This document shows positions 17,372 to 25,500 of a stretch of DNA of 64,000 nucleotides, in pieces (position 1 is the first letter of the stretch; the number at the start of each line of letters is the position of its first letter). The translations under genes were made by a program, and so were the position numbers. Where the stretch lies: positions 19,665-83,664 of the IMG/VR virus record IMGVR_UViG_3300048919_000123; one strand, written 5' to 3'. This stretch comes from a virus. Below the pieces are notes generated by a model. That model did not search any database, was not told the origin of the DNA, and worked only from the letters and a program-made list of their open reading frames with translations.

Positions 17372-17450
17372 TGGAAGAGGGTCAAGGATTCGAACCTTGG
17401 ATAGCCGGTGTCAAAGACCGGTGCCTTAAGCCAGACTTGGCGAACCCTCT
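17372..17450 (-). tRNA. tRNA-Gln (anticodon TTG)
   Basis: Cloverleaf: AGAGGGT/ACCCTCT acceptor, CCGGT-CTTTGAC-ACCGG anticodon arm, CAAGG-TTCGAAT-CCTTG T arm, encoded CCA. Confidence 0.95.
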
Positions 17451-18722: not shown

Positions 18723-19217
18723 TTAGAGGTCAGCCTCGGTGATGTCAACGTAGTAGGCCTTTCCCTGCTCCAGGTGGGCGGCGATGTCGCTGCGCACGTT
18801 GTAGCTCAGGGAGCCATACGGGGTGTACTTGCCGAACACGCCGTCTTCCTCGGTCGGGTTGGGGCTGTACACGGCGCCGAAGGTGCACCGGGTCAACGGA
18901 TCGTCCGCGCTGCCCACGTTCGGGGTGAGACTGTGCAGGGTCATCTTCAGGCGGGTTGTGCGGCGTGGGGTGGCAGGTTCGATGTGAAGGCCCATGCCGC
19001 AGAGCGACTCGCCGACCTTGAAGGGCACGCTGTTCTCGTCGAAGCGTTTGGCGCAGTCACTGACGCTCCCGGTGTCGATGGTCGAGCGCTTCACGGCGTC
19101 ATGCTCTGCAAGTTGGCGAGCCAGGTTCTCAACGGCTGGCGGGGTGGTGATTGAGGCGACACTGGCGTCCAGAGCCTTGTGGGCTTCCTCGAGGTAGTTC
19201 TGGGTCTTGATGGTCAT
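18723..19217 (-). CDS. Conserved phage hypothetical protein
   Basis: 164 aa, ACAGGA RBS; C-terminal E..F.KYTP.G.L....G..YYVD motif common in phages. Confidence 0.7.
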   Translation of the reverse strand: MTIKTQNYLEEAHKALDASVASITTPPAVENLARQLAEHDAVKRSTIDTGSVSDCAKRFDENSVPFKVGESLCGMGLHIEPATPRRTTRLKMTLHSLTPNVGSADDPLTRCTFGAVYSPNPTEEDGVFGKYTPYGSLSYNVRSDIAAHLEQGKAYYVDITEADL

Positions 19218-19404
19218 GGTGGGTGATCCTGTCGTGGAGGGTGTGGGTGTGGGTGTGGTGGAACGGCAGGATGGGGCTTGCGGATCTGGCGCCTGCGAGG
19301 GTGAAGCATAGGGTGGAAATTGAAAAAAGTAAAAAATCCTGACGCTGACCAAGGCAATGAAGCACGCCTCTGCCGTGCTAGAAAATAGGGGGCGGGGTGG
19401 GTCA

Positions 19405-19463
19405 AATTATTTTCACTTTTTCTACATTCTTCGCTTGCGCTTATAGTCTTATACCTCTAGTAT
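19405..19463 (+). promoter_or_regulatory. Early sigma70 promoter with AT-rich UP element
   Basis: TTGCGC(19435)-N17-TAGTAT(19458), preceded by T-rich tract. Confidence 0.6.
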
Positions 19464-19547
19464 TTGAACTGTAGACAGCAACACCGCCTCACCGCTTCAC
19501 CCGGCTGGCCCTTGGCCCGCCACTGGCTAGGCCTTTGCCTTGCCGCC

Positions 19548-19560
19548 CGCTCTTTAACAA
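19548..19560 (+). promoter_or_regulatory. boxA antitermination element
   Basis: CGCTCTTTAACAA, matches the rrn/lambda consensus boxA. Confidence 0.75.
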
Positions 19561-19919
19561 TTTGGTTCACCGCTATGCGGACTAAGCGACAACACCTGTC
19601 AGGCTCACTCGGGCCGGGCACGGGGAAGTCTTGCCAACGAGAATGATTATCAGTGTTATCTGCACTTCACCTGATAACCAGTACAAGCAAGACGTTCCAT
19701 TAACTCTATGCTGCTACCTGCACCACGAACGGGGTAACAGTAAAAAGACTAGACGATAGGACTACCCGTTTCCACTGGGGTACGTCATGCCACCCTGACA
19801 CGTACAGGGATATCTGAGGACATAGAGTTATTTACCGGTATCAACTAGTCAGGCCGACTCACTCGCCCACTGGGCAGTTAGATGTTAGCCAAACGCCACG
19901 CACCGAACCGAACTGTTAT

Positions 19920-19931
19920 CACTCTTTAACA
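19920..19931 (+). promoter_or_regulatory. Second boxA-like element
   Basis: CACTCTTTAACA. Confidence 0.55.
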
Positions 19932-20197
19932 TTACTAACCGAACTATGCTAACCGAGACGCACGGGATACTAGCGCATTACCCAAGCATTACCCCAAACA
20001 TGATTCACCTATGCAGTATCACCGACATACACACAACGGTTAGACACACCTGAATAACAAGGGTTGTTATTCCCAAGATAACAACCCTCGCGATGAACTA
20101 AGCATTTAGAATTTGAACTCCCCTAACCCCAGTGGTTTAGATCAAGTAGCTGTATCGGCTACTTGCCATAACTCACTAGCAATAAGGAATTAGAACC

Positions 20198-20983
20198 ATG
20201 GCCAAGAAACCACAACTGACCCTCACTGTGCAGGGCAAACAAGTTAACAACACCATCATTGCTGCCTACGCCAAGCGCGTTGGTTCGCTGGATGAAGTCC
20301 TGTCTGTCTGGGCTAACGCTGCAACCCTGCAAGTTGCCATCCACGGCAACCGTAACTGGATGGATGCCTTGTTTGATGTTCCAGTGATGCGCCTTGCTTC
20401 TGGCGCCCTGAGCAAAACCGGCAAGGAAGTGTTTAACTACATTTCCGCCCACTGCCCACGGGTAGTATGGAACAAGGAAAACAACACGGTCGGCATGACT
20501 AAGTTGCAGAAGGACAGCATTCTGGCAACTCACTTTATCGCGGTCGGTGCGACCGAAGAAAGCGAAGTGGTCAGCCTGCACCGTAACAAGTTCTACATGG
20601 CTCACGGTGACTTCGCCCTGACGCTGACCGCTTTCAAGAATCTGGTTAAACCAGAAGTCGAGAAAGAAGAGCAAGAGGAGAAAATGACCGCCGCCGCGTT
20701 CATCAAACAGGCGGACAAGGCGCTCAATTGCTTCAATGCGCAACGGTTTGTCGGCACCGAAGACGAACTGCTGACCGCCATGACCAAAGCAAAAGCGCTG
20801 TTTCTGGCGCTGGACGCCCAACTGGTCGAAGCCGAAAAAGCGAAACTGGCGAAACTGGCAGAAAGCGGTATTGCCGCGACCGCCGCCGACGTGGTCGACG
20901 TCGCCAAGGCCGACGAACTGCACAAGTCGGGTCAAGCCGGCAAGGCCCTGCGCGCTGGCGGCAAAGTCGCAAAAGCCGCCTAA
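20198..20983 (+). CDS. First early protein, hypothetical
   Basis: 261 aa, TAAGGA RBS, TAA stop. Confidence 0.85.
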   Translation: MAKKPQLTLTVQGKQVNNTIIAAYAKRVGSLDEVLSVWANAATLQVAIHGNRNWMDALFDVPVMRLASGALSKTGKEVFNYISAHCPRVVWNKENNTVGMTKLQKDSILATHFIAVGATEESEVVSLHRNKFYMAHGDFALTLTAFKNLVKPEVEKEEQEEKMTAAAFIKQADKALNCFNAQRFVGTEDELLTAMTKAKALFLALDAQLVEAEKAKLAKLAESGIAATAADVVDVAKADELHKSGQAGKALRAGGKVAKAA

Positions 20984-21046
20984 CCTTACCTTTCGATCCA
21001 CGGCGGGCCAGAAGGCCCGCCGACGCTCACACACGGAGTAACGACC

Positions 21047-21460
21047 ATGCTTGCAGCCGCCCTGATTACCCTTGCCTGTTCCCTTGCCCCGGCCCAACCG
21101 GGAATCGCCCCACACGACCAGTGCGACCGTCTGGTGATGCAGCGGTGGGAAGGCCCGACCACTGAAGAGCTGGACGATTGTGTGAACATGGCCGAGTCCC
21201 TGACCCTGATGGGCCAGCGTTCCACCTGCGAATTGCAGCGCGCCGAGGAGGAACCCGCCGTCGCCCTGTACCCCGCGCCGCCGGTCAAAGGCCCAAGCCG
21301 CGCGCTGAATGGCAAAACCCTGGCCAGCCGCAACAGCGCCCCGGCCGAATTGTCGAACCGCGACCTGTACAACCAGCGCGGCACCGGGGTTGAGCCGCCG
21401 AAAGCGCGGTTCATCATGCCCAACCCGATCGTGCCGATGCCGGTCAAGTTCATGTACTGA
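21047..21460 (+). CDS. Hypothetical exported protein
   Basis: GGAG RBS, hydrophobic signal-like N-terminus. Confidence 0.65.
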   Translation: MLAAALITLACSLAPAQPGIAPHDQCDRLVMQRWEGPTTEELDDCVNMAESLTLMGQRSTCELQRAEEEPAVALYPAPPVKGPSRALNGKTLASRNSAPAELSNRDLYNQRGTGVEPPKARFIMPNPIVPMPVKFMY

Positions 21461-21492
21461 TTCACCCGAACTCCGCAGACTGGAGTCCCTTC

Positions 21493-21528
21493 GGCCAGGC
21501 GCGCTAACCCGTGCCTGGCCTTTTTATT
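21493..21528 (+). terminator. Intrinsic terminator
   Basis: GGCCAGGC...GCCTGGCC followed by TTTTTATT. Confidence 0.7.
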
Positions 21529-21610
21529 CCGCGCGCGCCCGTGGGCGCGGGCCATGGTGATCGGCTGACAAGGTCAGTTTGACACTGAAAAGCAGTTGAA
21601 ATTTTCCCAG

Positions 21611-21623
21611 TAAGTCATTGATT
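21611..21623 (-). promoter_or_regulatory. IHF consensus site
   Basis: AATCAATGACTTA fits WATCAANNNNTTR. Confidence 0.55.
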
Positions 21624-21903
21624 AGCTGGGATTTTTAGGCAAAAACTTCAGAAGACTGGCGGCCGTCATCCAGACCGTCGAGCCGAGGAGATTTTCAGCC
21701 ATGATCTAACCGACCAGCCCCGGCAGGTGCCGCCTCACGCGGCGCCGAGCCATTTTCTTATCGGTAAAGTTACAAGCAACTCTTTGTTTCTAAAGCAATT
21801 TCTATTCGAATTTCTCGGTCGCCAGACCATCGAGAATGGCGCCGCTGTGGGTGACTTTCGCCCCGGCGGCGCCACCCTACCCCTGAGCATTAAGGAATTA
21901 GCC

Positions 21904-22371
21904 ATGTCGATCATGTCCCAACTCGCCGTCGCCATTCAGGATCGCGGCATCGACCTCAGCGCCGACCTCGACCTGCCCCAGCACCTGACCAACATCTACG
22001 CCTGTTCGGTCTACCGCTTCGACGGCTCCAACCCGCTGCACGTCAACATCGCCGCCGCCCATACCGCGGTGGCCGTGGCCAAGCTGGGCAACTGGTGCGT
22101 GACCAATCACGGCTTCCGGCCGTACCGCGCCAGTGCCAAGACCCCCGTACGCCGGCTGAAGATGGCCGACCTGATCCAGTGCCCCGGTGTGTACGACGCC
22201 GCGCTTCAGCTCGCCAAGGAGAATCAGGAGAGCGACGTGGTCACCGCCCTGCGCAAGATTCCGGCGTGGATCAGCCAGCAGACCGGCGTGCCGCTGCCGG
22301 TGCTCAACGTCGCCGACACTGACCGGCTGTTTCAGTCGCTGACCAACGAGATCGCCGCGCTGTCGGCGTAA
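21904..22371 (+). CDS. Hypothetical protein
   Basis: TAAGGA RBS before MSIMSQL. Confidence 0.8.
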   Translation: MSIMSQLAVAIQDRGIDLSADLDLPQHLTNIYACSVYRFDGSNPLHVNIAAAHTAVAVAKLGNWCVTNHGFRPYRASAKTPVRRLKMADLIQCPGVYDAALQLAKENQESDVVTALRKIPAWISQQTGVPLPVLNVADTDRLFQSLTNEIAALSA

Positions 22372-22433
22372 CCCCCACTGCCGAGGCCACTTGCAAAGGT
22401 GGCCGTGAGCCCAGACACAAAGGTGCCCGTACC

Positions 22434-22829
22434 ATGGAACGCAACCGCTCTTACGTGACCACCCTCGATCACTGCAAAGACGCCGCCCTCAAGGTCTACC
22501 AGATGACCGTGCTGCTGCGCCTGAACGAGCAGCAGTTCGACGATGCCTTCACCACCGACGTCTACAGCAAGATGGTCGGCGGAATGCCGGGCGAACTCAG
22601 CCGCCTTGAGACTTACACCAACGGTCTGCAGGAGGCCTACCGGGCAGCCATCAAGGAATCGCTGTGCGAATTCGTCTTCATCCTGCGCGACGGGGCAAAA
22701 GTCCTTCAAGCCGATGCCCGCAAGTACGATCCGGTCACCCTGTTCGAGTCGACCTGCTGCTATTCGTGGAAGGACAGCTACTACAACTTCACCGAGCCCG
22801 TCGACACCGTGCAGGAGACCCAACCGTGA
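22434..22829 (+). CDS. Hypothetical protein
   Basis: 131 aa, phage-like codon usage. Confidence 0.7.
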   Translation: MERNRSYVTTLDHCKDAALKVYQMTVLLRLNEQQFDDAFTTDVYSKMVGGMPGELSRLETYTNGLQEAYRAAIKESLCEFVFILRDGAKVLQADARKYDPVTLFESTCCYSWKDSYYNFTEPVDTVQETQP

Positions 22830-23020
22830 ACTTCGCCGCCTGGCTGGCCACTCTCGGCCTTGAGCGCCACACAGCCGGCCTGATCGCCACCTTGGGCGTG
22901 TGCTGCGCTCTCACACTGCTCGGCGTGGCCTGTGTCGCCTGGTGCGAAGGCTGGCGACCGCCCCGCCAGCGCCCCAGCCCGCCGCGAGGCGCCACCCGTC
23001 ACAAGCCTGGGCAGCCATGA
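22826..23020 (+). CDS. Small membrane protein
   Basis: GTG start with AGGAG RBS, one hydrophobic helix. Confidence 0.55.
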   Translation: MNFAAWLATLGLERHTAGLIATLGVCCALTLLGVACVAWCEGWRPPRQRPSPPRGATRHKPGQP

Positions 23021-23094
23021 AGGTGTGGCTGTTGATCTTGTTTACCGAAGGGAAACAGAAAGATAAGGGCATTTACATGCAAGGCCTGTGCCAA

Positions 23095-23660
23095 AATCCC
23101 CTCTATACCTATACCTAATAAGTTATTAGTAGGGGGTATATAGGGGGGTATGGGGGGGGGGGAGAGAGGGAGGTAGGGTAGATAAATATTAAGGTGAGAT
23201 TCTCGTTTTTGGATTTAAATGCGGAGGCCTATTTGCAAATCTAATACTCGCTGTTGATTTCTAAGGGGCGCGAATTTGAAAAACGTGTTTTGCGTTTTTA
23301 TCTAGGGCGATAACGTCACCCTCGCCTACACCCAAACCCTCACCTTCCCTTCAACCCTACCTAAACCGGCACTCTCAGCCTCACCTTCCCCTTCCACCTT
23401 TCTTTCAGCGTACCGCCTCAACCCCGCATAATCTGCCGCCGTCACCTTCACTCACGCCTTATACTTTCAAGGTCGGCCTTACCGTTCGTCGACCCTGACC
23501 CTGAGGTCAGCTTTGCAAACCGTAATTTAAATAGTGAAGTAACCAGTTGGTACATTATCGTTTTATACAGGGCAAAACTTGAACCTTTCTAAGAAACTGT
23601 CCTGATTTTTTATCGTTTTATGCTAATCTATAAGCATAACCCTCCTTAGAGCCCTATATA
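23095..23660. other. Non-coding AT/G-run-rich region, candidate replication origin
   Basis: G-runs, inverted repeat, CCTCACCTTCCC direct repeats, AT-rich tracts. Confidence 0.4.
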
Positions 23661-23662
23661 CC

Positions 23663-24946
23663 ATGAACTTTCAGCTACTTTCCGCCCGAGCTGTAGAGGA
23701 GCGTCTCCAGCCTAAGCCCCGTCGCCCCTCAAAGCCCCGTCTACCAAGGCTTGCGAGCCTCGGCTGCTACCTGCCCGCCGGTGACATCAAGGCCCATTTC
23801 CGCGCCCTCGGTGCCCACCTCGACCCCGACAGCCCTGAAATGGAGGCTGCCGCCGCGGTGTTCGCCAGCTCCCTGCTCGACGCACTCGGCGAGGCCAGCA
23901 AACCCGAACGCAGCCTCATTGGCCCGGCCCGCTACAGCGACCGCATCCTCGCCAAATACTGCCGCTGGTTGCAGAAGTCGGCGTTCGGGCTGCCTGGCGT
24001 GGATCTGGTCAGCCCCGCGCTTGTGCCGTACCTGCTCGGCGGCATCCCGATCAAGGCTGTCGAGGATCTGGCGCACCGGGCGCTGGAGGTCATGGACTTC
24101 TTCCCCGACCCCCTCAGCGACTACACGCTGGGCAAGTTCGCTGCGGTCGGCTTCGGCGCGCGGCCGCACATTCACCACGACGTGGAGGTCATCAAGCGCT
24201 TCTCCAACTTCAGTTTCCGTCAGGAGTTCATCCTCGACCTGCCGCGCACCGGTTCCTACAGCCGGCTGCTGATCGACAGCGGCGCTTATGGCGCGTCCGC
24301 CCGGCGCAAGATCGCCATGATCCAGCCCCAGATCATCGCCGAGGTCGAACAGCTGCTCGACCCTGAAAGCGGTGAGATGGGAGAGGTGGCAGCCCACGGC
24401 CGGGAGCCGCTGAAGGTCACGGCGTTGATGTTCAATCGCGCTGTGCGGCGGGTGTTCGAAAGACCCTGGGCTGAGCTGGACTTGTCCGGTGACCCGGCCG
24501 ACTTCCATGCCGATGCCGAGGTGCTGCTCGCCCGCCGACTGATCGTTCATTTGACGTCAAAGGAACGGCAGCGCGAGAAGGACACGGTCAGCGCTCAGAC
24601 GTTGGTCGGAATGTCGCTACTTACCGGCATTTCGCTGGCCAACTGGACGGAATTTGCCGTCTATGATCTACGCAGGCGCGGGGAGACTTTCCTCACTGCC
24701 GAGGCCATCGAGGCGGCGATCCGCATCGCCGAGGTGTCGCCGTATTTCCGCTGCGCCGAGGCGATGACCGAAGCGGCGACGGAAATCAAGTTCGCCTCCA
24801 TGGAGAAGGCGGCGTGGGCACGGAGATTGCGTTCTGGACGCCAGCCACTGTGGAGCACCAGCGGTCGTTTCTACCAGAACGGCCTTGACGGTGACGGGTT
24901 GCCGACGTTCAAGCACAAGCCGTACCGCCTCTCGGATGATGGCTAG
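23663..24946 (+). CDS. Hypothetical protein (427 aa)
   Basis: Long ORF with coding-like codon bias; no recognised motif. Confidence 0.75.
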   Translation: MNFQLLSARAVEERLQPKPRRPSKPRLPRLASLGCYLPAGDIKAHFRALGAHLDPDSPEMEAAAAVFASSLLDALGEASKPERSLIGPARYSDRILAKYCRWLQKSAFGLPGVDLVSPALVPYLLGGIPIKAVEDLAHRALEVMDFFPDPLSDYTLGKFAAVGFGARPHIHHDVEVIKRFSNFSFRQEFILDLPRTGSYSRLLIDSGAYGASARRKIAMIQPQIIAEVEQLLDPESGEMGEVAAHGREPLKVTALMFNRAVRRVFERPWAELDLSGDPADFHADAEVLLARRLIVHLTSKERQREKDTVSAQTLVGMSLLTGISLANWTEFAVYDLRRRGETFLTAEAIEAAIRIAEVSPYFRCAEAMTEAATEIKFASMEKAAWARRLRSGRQPLWSTSGRFYQNGLDGDGLPTFKHKPYRLSDDG

Positions 24947-25015
24947 ATTCCTCGCTATTGAGCGAGGTTCCCCGAAGGTGGGGACGGAAACCCCCTCTTA
25001 ACCCTATCCTGCCGC

Positions 25016-25483
25016 ATGAGGCGGGTTCCCAAGGTCGTAGTCATGCACACACAGCCAATTATCCAAGCCCACTGGGGGATGGTGGACTGTCTGTTCGATG
25101 AGGTGTTCCTCGGAAAGCACGAGGACACCCTGCATTCGCACGAAATGCTGGAAGAGCTGTTCCGTTACTTCGCCTCGCACGATCCACGCTTTCACCGGGT
25201 CGGCCTGCACTGGAACCACCGCGGGTTCATTGAGTACGGCGGGTTCAAGGCCGAGGGCGCCATCGCGGCGTTCCTCGGCCTGCCGCTGACCGCGCGCGGG
25301 GATGCCAGCTTCCAGGCCCTGTGCAAGATCTACCGGCCCTTCCGGGACAAGGAGGAGGCGCGGACGTGGATCCGCTGGGAGGCGCAGAAGCAGTACGGGT
25401 ACACCCGAAAGGATCAGGATCTGTGGAAGGATTATCCGCGGAATTTCCCTGAGATTCCTAATGCAATCAATGAGTTGAACTGA
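25016..25483 (+). CDS. Hypothetical protein
   Basis: 155 aa ORF; start uncertain. Confidence 0.6.
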   Translation: MRRVPKVVVMHTQPIIQAHWGMVDCLFDEVFLGKHEDTLHSHEMLEELFRYFASHDPRFHRVGLHWNHRGFIEYGGFKAEGAIAAFLGLPLTARGDASFQALCKIYRPFRDKEEARTWIRWEAQKQYGYTRKDQDLWKDYPRNFPEIPNAINELN

Positions 25484-25500
25484 AAATAGGACTAAGAATT

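Follow-up and report, generated by a model that had tools for sequence, protein, structure and literature searches.

Bacterial rRNA (rrn) operons carry a leader antiterminator of the order boxB-boxA-boxC, which works with NusA, NusB, NusE, NusG, SuhB, and S4, and they have a further boxA in the 16S-23S spacer. In these leaders a hairpin comes first and boxA follows; boxA contributes most to the activity, and the complex has a second role as a chaperone of RNA, as passages of one account describe (PMC8632103). Passages of another account give GYTCTTTAANA as the gammaproteobacterial boxA consensus and report that boxA outside rRNA controls Rho on poorly translated or untranslated RNA (PMC5725501). 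Among phages, lambda-type nut sites, read together with the N protein, present boxA followed by a small hairpin on the nascent early transcript, a short distance before a terminator. The virulent phage T7 uses the host-type promoters A1 to A3 and has an early leader of ~175 nt (start at 750, gene at 925). We located a boxA at 811 to 823 of the T7 record, 62 nt after the A3 start, where it is not annotated; no open paper on the role of this element was found. Just before gene 0.3, its first early gene, T7 has a stem/internal-loop/stem hairpin, likewise unannotated in the record, which we take to be the RNase III site R0.3. Two further kinds of RNA are relevant. The suhB-type leaders and other long untranslated RNAs with a boxA belong to cellular genes, and CRISPR arrays are reportedly one case of a boxA placed before a long untranslated RNA. 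GOLLD and ROOL are phage-carried RNAs of several hundred nucleotides with many covarying helices.

We analyzed a 64-kb (64,000-nt) stretch of viral DNA, here called the window, which is part of an 83.7-kb virus record. The structural genes (terminase, portal, protease, and major head) lie leftward of ~19.2 kb, and all sizeable genes from 20198 to the window end are on the + strand. The rightward order begins with genes of unknown function and continues with methylase, DNA polymerases, helicases, primase, and ligase. A leader of ~730 nt (19471 to 20197, + strand), which lies in mid-contig in the record, occupies the point of divergence between late genes running leftward and early genes running rightward. 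Judged by its sequence, this stretch has the behavior of a + strand RNA that is structured and conserved, and the putative sigma-70-type promoter before it is conserved as well. The leftward arm also carries a tRNA-Gln gene (17372 to 17450, - strand).

The nearest named relatives are UAntarctica, Lana, and PMBT3, virulent Pseudomonas siphophages that are 72 to 75% identical to the window over parts of 19200 to 20400. All three have the homologous gap between divergent genes, 842 to 906 nt long and without annotation. Word searches of the main text of the PMBT3 paper (PMC8421299) and of the Lana paper (PMC7368026) found no mention of the leader, and our search of the literature on boxA in Pseudomonas phages, on T7 and NusB, and on cappable-seq found no paper on such a leader. 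To collect homologues, a protein search with gene 1 (four loci) was combined with DNA pattern searches (eight viral and four metagenome loci). Among the four metagenome matches, L017 was false and was dropped, and two repeated viral contigs. De-duplication left nine distinct leaders, 56 to 83% identical to the window. A profile of gene 1 homologues added five more distant loci (34 to 69% protein identity), bringing the set to 14 distinct leaders. A gap of 618 to 738 nt before the same first rightward gene is kept in all 14 of these relatives of Lana, PMBT3, and UAntarctica. Among 185,579 species of bacteria and archaea, each represented by one genome, the leader pattern had no match, and a scan with TTAACCTTTATCAAC gave 80 matches, four of them in the leader family and none a new member. 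Every sequence feature that the initial annotation had listed was recovered at its position in the window.

Features of the leader and its surroundings, with positions in the window
Feature	Position	Strand	Remarks
Putative early promoter	19435-19463	+	-35 TTGCGC (19435-19440), 17-nt spacer, -10 TAGTAT (19458-19463)
Two GC-rich hairpins 5' of boxA1	19503-19544	+	predicted in 9/9 leaders folded separately
boxA1, CGCTCTTTAACAA	19548-19560	+	13/13 identical to the Pseudomonas rrn leader boxA
Post-boxA1 region	19570-19623	+	small hairpin around invariant GCGGA; invariant GCGACAAC; covarying hairpin at 19595-19623
Invariant ACGGGGAAG, then helix GGAAGTCTTGC/GCAAGACGTTCC enclosing TTATCAG/CTGATAA	19620-19699	+	from the fold of the window
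Variable multibranch domain closed by TAACTCTATG/CATAGAGTTA	19701-19830	+	L004 keeps the helix with a different sequence
Conserved single-stranded TTTACCGGTATCAAC, then hairpin with conserved ACTCAC and GTTAGATGT	19831-19890	+	12 pairs, 5 changed on both sides
boxA2, CACTCTTTAACAT	19920-19932	+	boxA-like; 10/11 consensus positions, A for G at position 1
Post-boxA2 module	19949-20043	+	CTAACCG/CGGTTAG around CGGGATACT/AGTATCACCG and the C/A-rich single strand ACATACACACAA
Perfect 11-bp hairpin	20060-20088	+	z = -6.3; structure kept, sequence free
Last domain	20130-20179	+	lower stem, 3x3 internal loop, 10-bp upper stem; ends 19 nt before the start codon
Ribosome-binding site AAGGA	20184-20188	+	before gene 1
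Gene 1	20198-20983	+	261 aa, no known family
Strong intrinsic terminator	21493-21525	+	follows gene 2; stem of 11 bp, 9 of them G-C, and then T5

The layout TTGnnn-17-TAnnAT is conserved across the aligned relatives, so that the proposed placing of the leader behind an early promoter stands as a conserved sigma-70-type arrangement seen by sequence comparison. Host RNA polymerase would start here at ~19469 to 19471. A search for RNA runs containing the stretch returned none; one short contig covering 19762 to 20036 comes from a run whose RNA nature is a guess, and it is uninformative on transcription. A sigma-70 consensus scan of 19100 to 20300 returned no promoter above threshold because the putative promoter scores 8/12, below that threshold; its whole sequence is unique within the window. 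In the spacer (19440 to 19455), CTTATA occurs twice as a direct repeat. PMBT3 has TTAGAT twice at the same place, and the repeat is therefore kept despite the change of sequence. Between the divergent promoters (19362 to 19397) we also noted an inverted repeat, GCACG-N7-CGTGC, and a G-rich box, AAAATAGGGGGCGGGG. The inverted repeat is kept in 8/9 relatives (L014 differs) and may be an operator or another control site.

The leader does not code for protein. Stop codons number 11 to 14 per + frame in the window and 7 to 24 per frame in the five distant leaders. No ORF of at least 25 codons keeps its ATG and position across nine leaders, ORFs of that length lying at differing places. The description of an ORF-free leader of ~730 nt therefore holds, as does the remark that its GC content is lower than that of the genes (49.6% in the leader versus 60.2% in the rightward genes). 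All 14 leaders are C-rich, with C/G ratios of 1.19 to 1.56, and in the window the ratio peaks at 1.6 to 2.0 at 19871 to 20070, right after boxA2.

boxA1 is an exact copy of a host signal. Besides its identity to the rrn leader boxA, it agrees with the T7 early-leader boxA at 13/13 positions and with the gammaproteobacterial consensus at 11/11. The same CGCTCTTTAACAA stands ~160 nt before the 16S gene in 10 of 13 Pseudomonas rrn leaders and 170 and 178 nt before it in two others; the remaining one has no match. The 10-mer CTCTTTAACA has six copies in a complete Pseudomonas genome of 6.5 Mb, all in rrn leaders 160 nt before 16S, and in the 64-kb window it occurs exactly twice, at 19550 and 19922, 372 nt apart. 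The 11-nt core of boxA1 is invariant in 14/14 leaders, although gene 1 identity drops to 34% and most other leader motifs vanish in the distant members. Consensus boxA matches number exactly one per genome in 5/5 whole phage genomes, and the match is always boxA1. As a candidate NusB/S10 site, the first boxA of the initial annotation is thus a perfect host-type sequence.

The resemblance to rrn operons extends to the arrangement. As in an rrn leader, hairpins stand just 5' of boxA1 (the GC-rich pair ends 3 nt before it), and boxA1 heads a long, untranslated, highly structured RNA; as in an rrn operon with its spacer boxA, a second boxA-type site follows further in. Unlike the rrn leader, the phage RNA precedes protein genes, and the sequence of boxA2 differs from that of the host spacer boxA, which itself differs from CTCTTTAACA. 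Mimicry of the rrn leader beyond boxA was ruled out: with boxA masked, the nine leaders gave local alignment scores of 16 to 21 against the host rrn leader, compared to a shuffle mean of 19 to 20. Since no similarity to the host leader extends beyond a 14-mer around boxA, the phage leader has no boxC.

While boxA1 is exact, the second of the two boxA elements that had been proposed is boxA-like only. Its first consensus G is replaced by A or C in 14/14 leaders and the site is degenerate in some, so that calling it a boxA overstates it. The 10-mer CTCTTTAACA is exact there in 10/14 leaders; PMBT3, L020, and L357 have one change each, and L360 is degenerate. The positions of the two sites bear on whether the Nus complex might lower the expression of gene 1, as it does in the Escherichia coli suhB leader. 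A boxA can repress the gene downstream of it, and the criterion given in the same passages is a boxA within ~50 nt of the start codon (PMC5725501). The start codon of gene 1 is 638 nt from boxA1 and 266 nt from boxA2, and we consider repression of this kind very improbable.

The + strand of the whole leader folds with z = -3.9 (0/20 shuffles as good) and the - strand with z = -2.0. Folded singly, the nine leaders have the same order of elements throughout: two GC-rich hairpins, boxA1, the GCGGA small hairpin, GCGACAAC, a 9- to 10-bp hairpin, ACGGGGAAG opening a long-range helix, a junction of variable size, a conserved single strand, a hairpin with conserved internal bases, boxA2, a C/A-rich strand enclosed by a long-range helix, a perfect hairpin whose sequence is free, a final stem/internal-loop/stem, and the ribosome-binding site. 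Covariation was counted in 7 to 12 sequences from few subgroups, on structures derived from the same alignments: the 5' part (nine sequences) has 23 pairs with 86.4% of cells paired and 12 pairs changed on both sides (score reached by 0/500 shuffles); the middle domains (seven sequences) have 36 pairs, 89.2% of cells paired, and 22 changed on both sides (0/500 on all measures); and the last domain has 18 pairs, with 94.4% of cells paired and 9 pairs changed on both sides in nine sequences and 95.8% and 13 in 12 sequences (0/500 shuffles in each case). For the 5' part, the measure "further pair types" was reached by 254/500 shuffles. The window and L004 were left out of the middle-domain alignment because their insertion misaligns, and L357 and L360 were left out of the 12-sequence alignment because their layout differs. 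When the 3' partners were slid by 1 to 3 columns, pairing fell to 21 to 54% in every alignment.

Single helices follow the same pattern. Both sides are changed in 4/6 pairs of the first GC-rich hairpin, in 8/9 pairs of the hairpin at 19595 to 19623, and in 9/10 pairs of the helix CAAGTAGC/GCTACTTG in the last domain (12 sequences; score reached by 0/500 shuffles). Seven relatives have a homologue of the GTCTTGC/GCAAGAC domain in which a GGAAG/CTTCC helix and the inner helices covary. The size of the multibranch domain varies; the shorter relatives have a three-way junction there, with a conserved loop, GATAWMCACACGG, on a covarying stem (8/9 pairs). The CTAACCG/CGGTTAG helix of the post-boxA2 module (19949 to 20043), the most C-rich and G-poor part of the leader, forms in 9/9 leaders with changed sequences, and its mean energy is -10.5 kcal/mol with its own partner versus -6.95 kcal/mol with cross-partners. 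At the place of the 20060 to 20088 hairpin, 9/9 leaders have a perfect hairpin of 9 to 13 bp and of unrelated sequence. The five helices named in the initial annotation, for which covariation in related phages was the check, are confirmed, their pairing being kept through compensatory changes. In the closest relative (L004, ~2840 to 2900), the 20060 to 20088 hairpin is present as a tandem duplicate with a different sequence.

Among the predicted pairs, G-U exceeds A-C by 57 to 19, and the folded strand is thus the + strand RNA. This count also bears on a reading at the level of DNA, by which the inverted repeats would act as a replication origin, a packaging site, or a genome end. Such a role would suit a location where leftward late and rightward early genes diverge. 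However, stems that change and yet pair, together with the excess of G-U, fit a + strand RNA rather than protein-bound DNA repeats, and the stretch is in mid-contig in its record. We give the DNA reading scarcely any credence.

Two smaller points concern repeats within the leader. The direct repeat reported at 19598 and 19848 is present in the window but is not conserved, since the hairpin sequence of its first copy differs in 6/9 relatives. We also observed that the junction-domain loop GATAWMCACACGG of the shorter leaders resembles the C/A-rich ACATACA(C/A)ACAACGG after boxA2 and that GCACGGG follows each boxA. Because of these similar motifs, the two halves of the leader may reflect an old duplication or a common binding partner.

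In layout the leader matches that of T7, likewise a virulent phage: a host-type promoter, the same 13-nt boxA 60 to 80 nt after the start, and a stem/internal-loop/stem hairpin just before the first early gene, promoter and start being putative in the window. Its last domain folds with the same layout as the T7 hairpin before gene 0.3, and by this resemblance to R0.3 it is a candidate RNase III site. The boxA part of the leader therefore has a precedent in the T7 early leader. The difference from T7 is that boxA and the hairpin are separated here by ~600 nt of folded, conserved RNA with a further boxA-like site, and it is this large folded RNA that is new.

Our preferred reading, which we hold with moderate confidence, is that a short early unit begins here with an untranslated leader, in which boxA1 would recruit Nus factors, the long C-rich RNA would escape Rho and fold, and the RNA would then be separated from the mRNA at its last domain. 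As part of the same reading, and with the same confidence, we take the phage to be a virulent Lana/PMBT3-like Pseudomonas siphophage and the leader to head its first rightward transcription unit. After ~78 nt, the nascent RNA would present the two GC-rich hairpins and then boxA1, which would load NusB-NusE(S10) onto the polymerase, joined by NusA, NusG, and SuhB, in the same way as in rRNA operons. The modified polymerase would resist Rho over 650 nt of RNA that is C-rich and untranslated and would otherwise suit Rho well as a substrate, and the tethered 5' end may also aid the folding of the long RNA. At boxA2, immediately ahead of the part of the leader that is richest in C and least structured, the complex may be loaded anew or strengthened. 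Since an R0.3-like element ends the leader 19 nt before gene 1, the folded RNA would probably be cut from the mRNA of genes 1 and 2 at the last domain, and the unit would end at the terminator after gene 2.

Shielding from Rho accounts for boxA, its position, and its invariance, but not for the keeping of 600 nt of elaborate structure. The RNA itself could be the product, an abundant early noncoding RNA acting in trans and possibly released by RNase III, with the boxA copies as its payload or serving only its synthesis. As a decoy, it could titrate NusB/S10/SuhB or some other RNA-binding protein of the host and so shut down host rRNA synthesis; alternatively, it could be a scaffold for the take-over. 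At least 12 conserved helices and the conserved loop motifs far exceed what a boxA site needs, one RNA carries two boxA-type sites, and a processing-type hairpin stands at its 3' border. Yet the body of the RNA diverges fast while boxA1 is fixed, and boxA2 is imperfect. We regard a product RNA of this kind as unlikely. The initial annotation had offered an RNA-based antitermination platform and a large or processed noncoding RNA as alternatives, and both may hold together. A bolder combination, which we put forward tentatively and as less likely than not, is that the phage imitates an rRNA operon on a small scale: an RNA of a new family would be made and folded via the boxA-recruited rrn complex, cut by RNase III at a T7-like site, and would act in trans in host take-over.

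Like GOLLD and ROOL, the leader RNA is phage-carried, several hundred nucleotides long, and rich in covarying helices. Unlike them, it is the 5' leader of an mRNA, carries boxA, and has no Rfam match. An Rfam 15 covariance-model scan with E values up to 10 gave no match in the leader, the only two being at chance level (E of 0.32 and 4.4) and outside it. It differs from the suhB-type leaders and other long untranslated boxA RNAs in that it does not belong to a cellular gene. Large conserved noncoding RNAs are rare, and most have proved to do something unusual. This one, probably the first RNA made on infection, would link a large RNA to the host rRNA transcription machinery, and it is carried by the cultured and harmless phages PMBT3 and Lana, making it directly testable. 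If boxA is needed for its synthesis or folding, the leader would show cleanly that a phage can take over the rrn antitermination/chaperone complex and need no N protein for it. An A-rich sponge motif of the Hfq/Crc type was also considered by eye and set aside, as the window lacks the candidate motif of the 5' end.

Gene 1 has no Pfam or PHROG family, and its Atlas neighbors are unnamed viral clusters. Its AlphaFold model (pLDDT of 75.7) had no PDB match at E <= 0.001. Approximately 100 homologues exist, mostly on contigs of 80 to 92 kb, and none is named. Genes 1 to 4 as a group had no Pfam or PHROG match. By eye, gene 2 (21047 to 21460) has an N-terminal hydrophobic stretch ending in a lipobox-like Leu-Ala-Cys, and its product may be an early-made lipoprotein.

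The initial annotation had set the leader at the head of an early operon of ~25 kb, and this we doubt, as a strong conserved terminator stands 1.3 kb downstream after only two genes. The terminator and its flanks are conserved in 7/7 relatives that reach that far. The first transcription unit probably ends there, and unless the terminator is read through, the unit headed by the leader would therefore be ~2 kb long. Complexes of the rrn type work chiefly against Rho rather than against strong intrinsic terminators. For this reason, shielding from Rho leaves unexplained how the genes beyond 21525 are reached.

The terminator could be passed in the manner of lambda, if a phage N-like protein from the early unit reads boxA1 and the small hairpin after it as a nut site and allows read-through of 21493 to 21525 into the ~42 kb of rightward genes. 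The small hairpin is present 10 to 20 nt after boxA1 in all leaders folded or read. Its stem and first loop bases are nearly invariant in nine sequences, as expected for an element recognized by a protein; because of this near invariance, covariation cannot judge the hairpin. In addition, the placing of a strong, conserved terminator behind two or three small genes is reminiscent of lambda early operons, and the rightward genes are all on one strand to the window end. On the other hand, inspection by eye of the ORFs of 20990 to 25500 revealed no small arginine-rich protein, and neither the family searches with genes 1 to 4 nor the gene 1 model (without a clear fold match) points to one, although N proteins are hard to recognize by sequence. 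The sequence of the hairpin differs in the two most distant leaders. Unlike a lambda-type nut site, the phage leader also has hairpins before boxA1, which is the rrn order, and it is 10 times the length of a nut site. We therefore judge a nut-type mechanism quite unlikely and retain the boxA1-dependent escape from Rho as the preferred reading.

Another conserved motif, GAAATTTTCCCAGTAAGT, lies approximately 70 nt beyond the terminator (in 21493 to 21620). It has no second copy in the window, does not resemble a sigma-70 element, and may serve the next genes as a middle promoter or control site.

The 14-mer CCGCTCTTTAACAA around boxA occurs in at least 120 viral contigs, none of the listed copies lying beside a 16S start and the contexts being many and varied. 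Because at least 120 viral contigs carry it away from 16S, the use of an rrn-type boxA by phages appears to be much wider than lambda and T7. In several viral contigs of ~40 kb, the 14-mer lies ~350 nt from one end, behind a sigma-70-type promoter.
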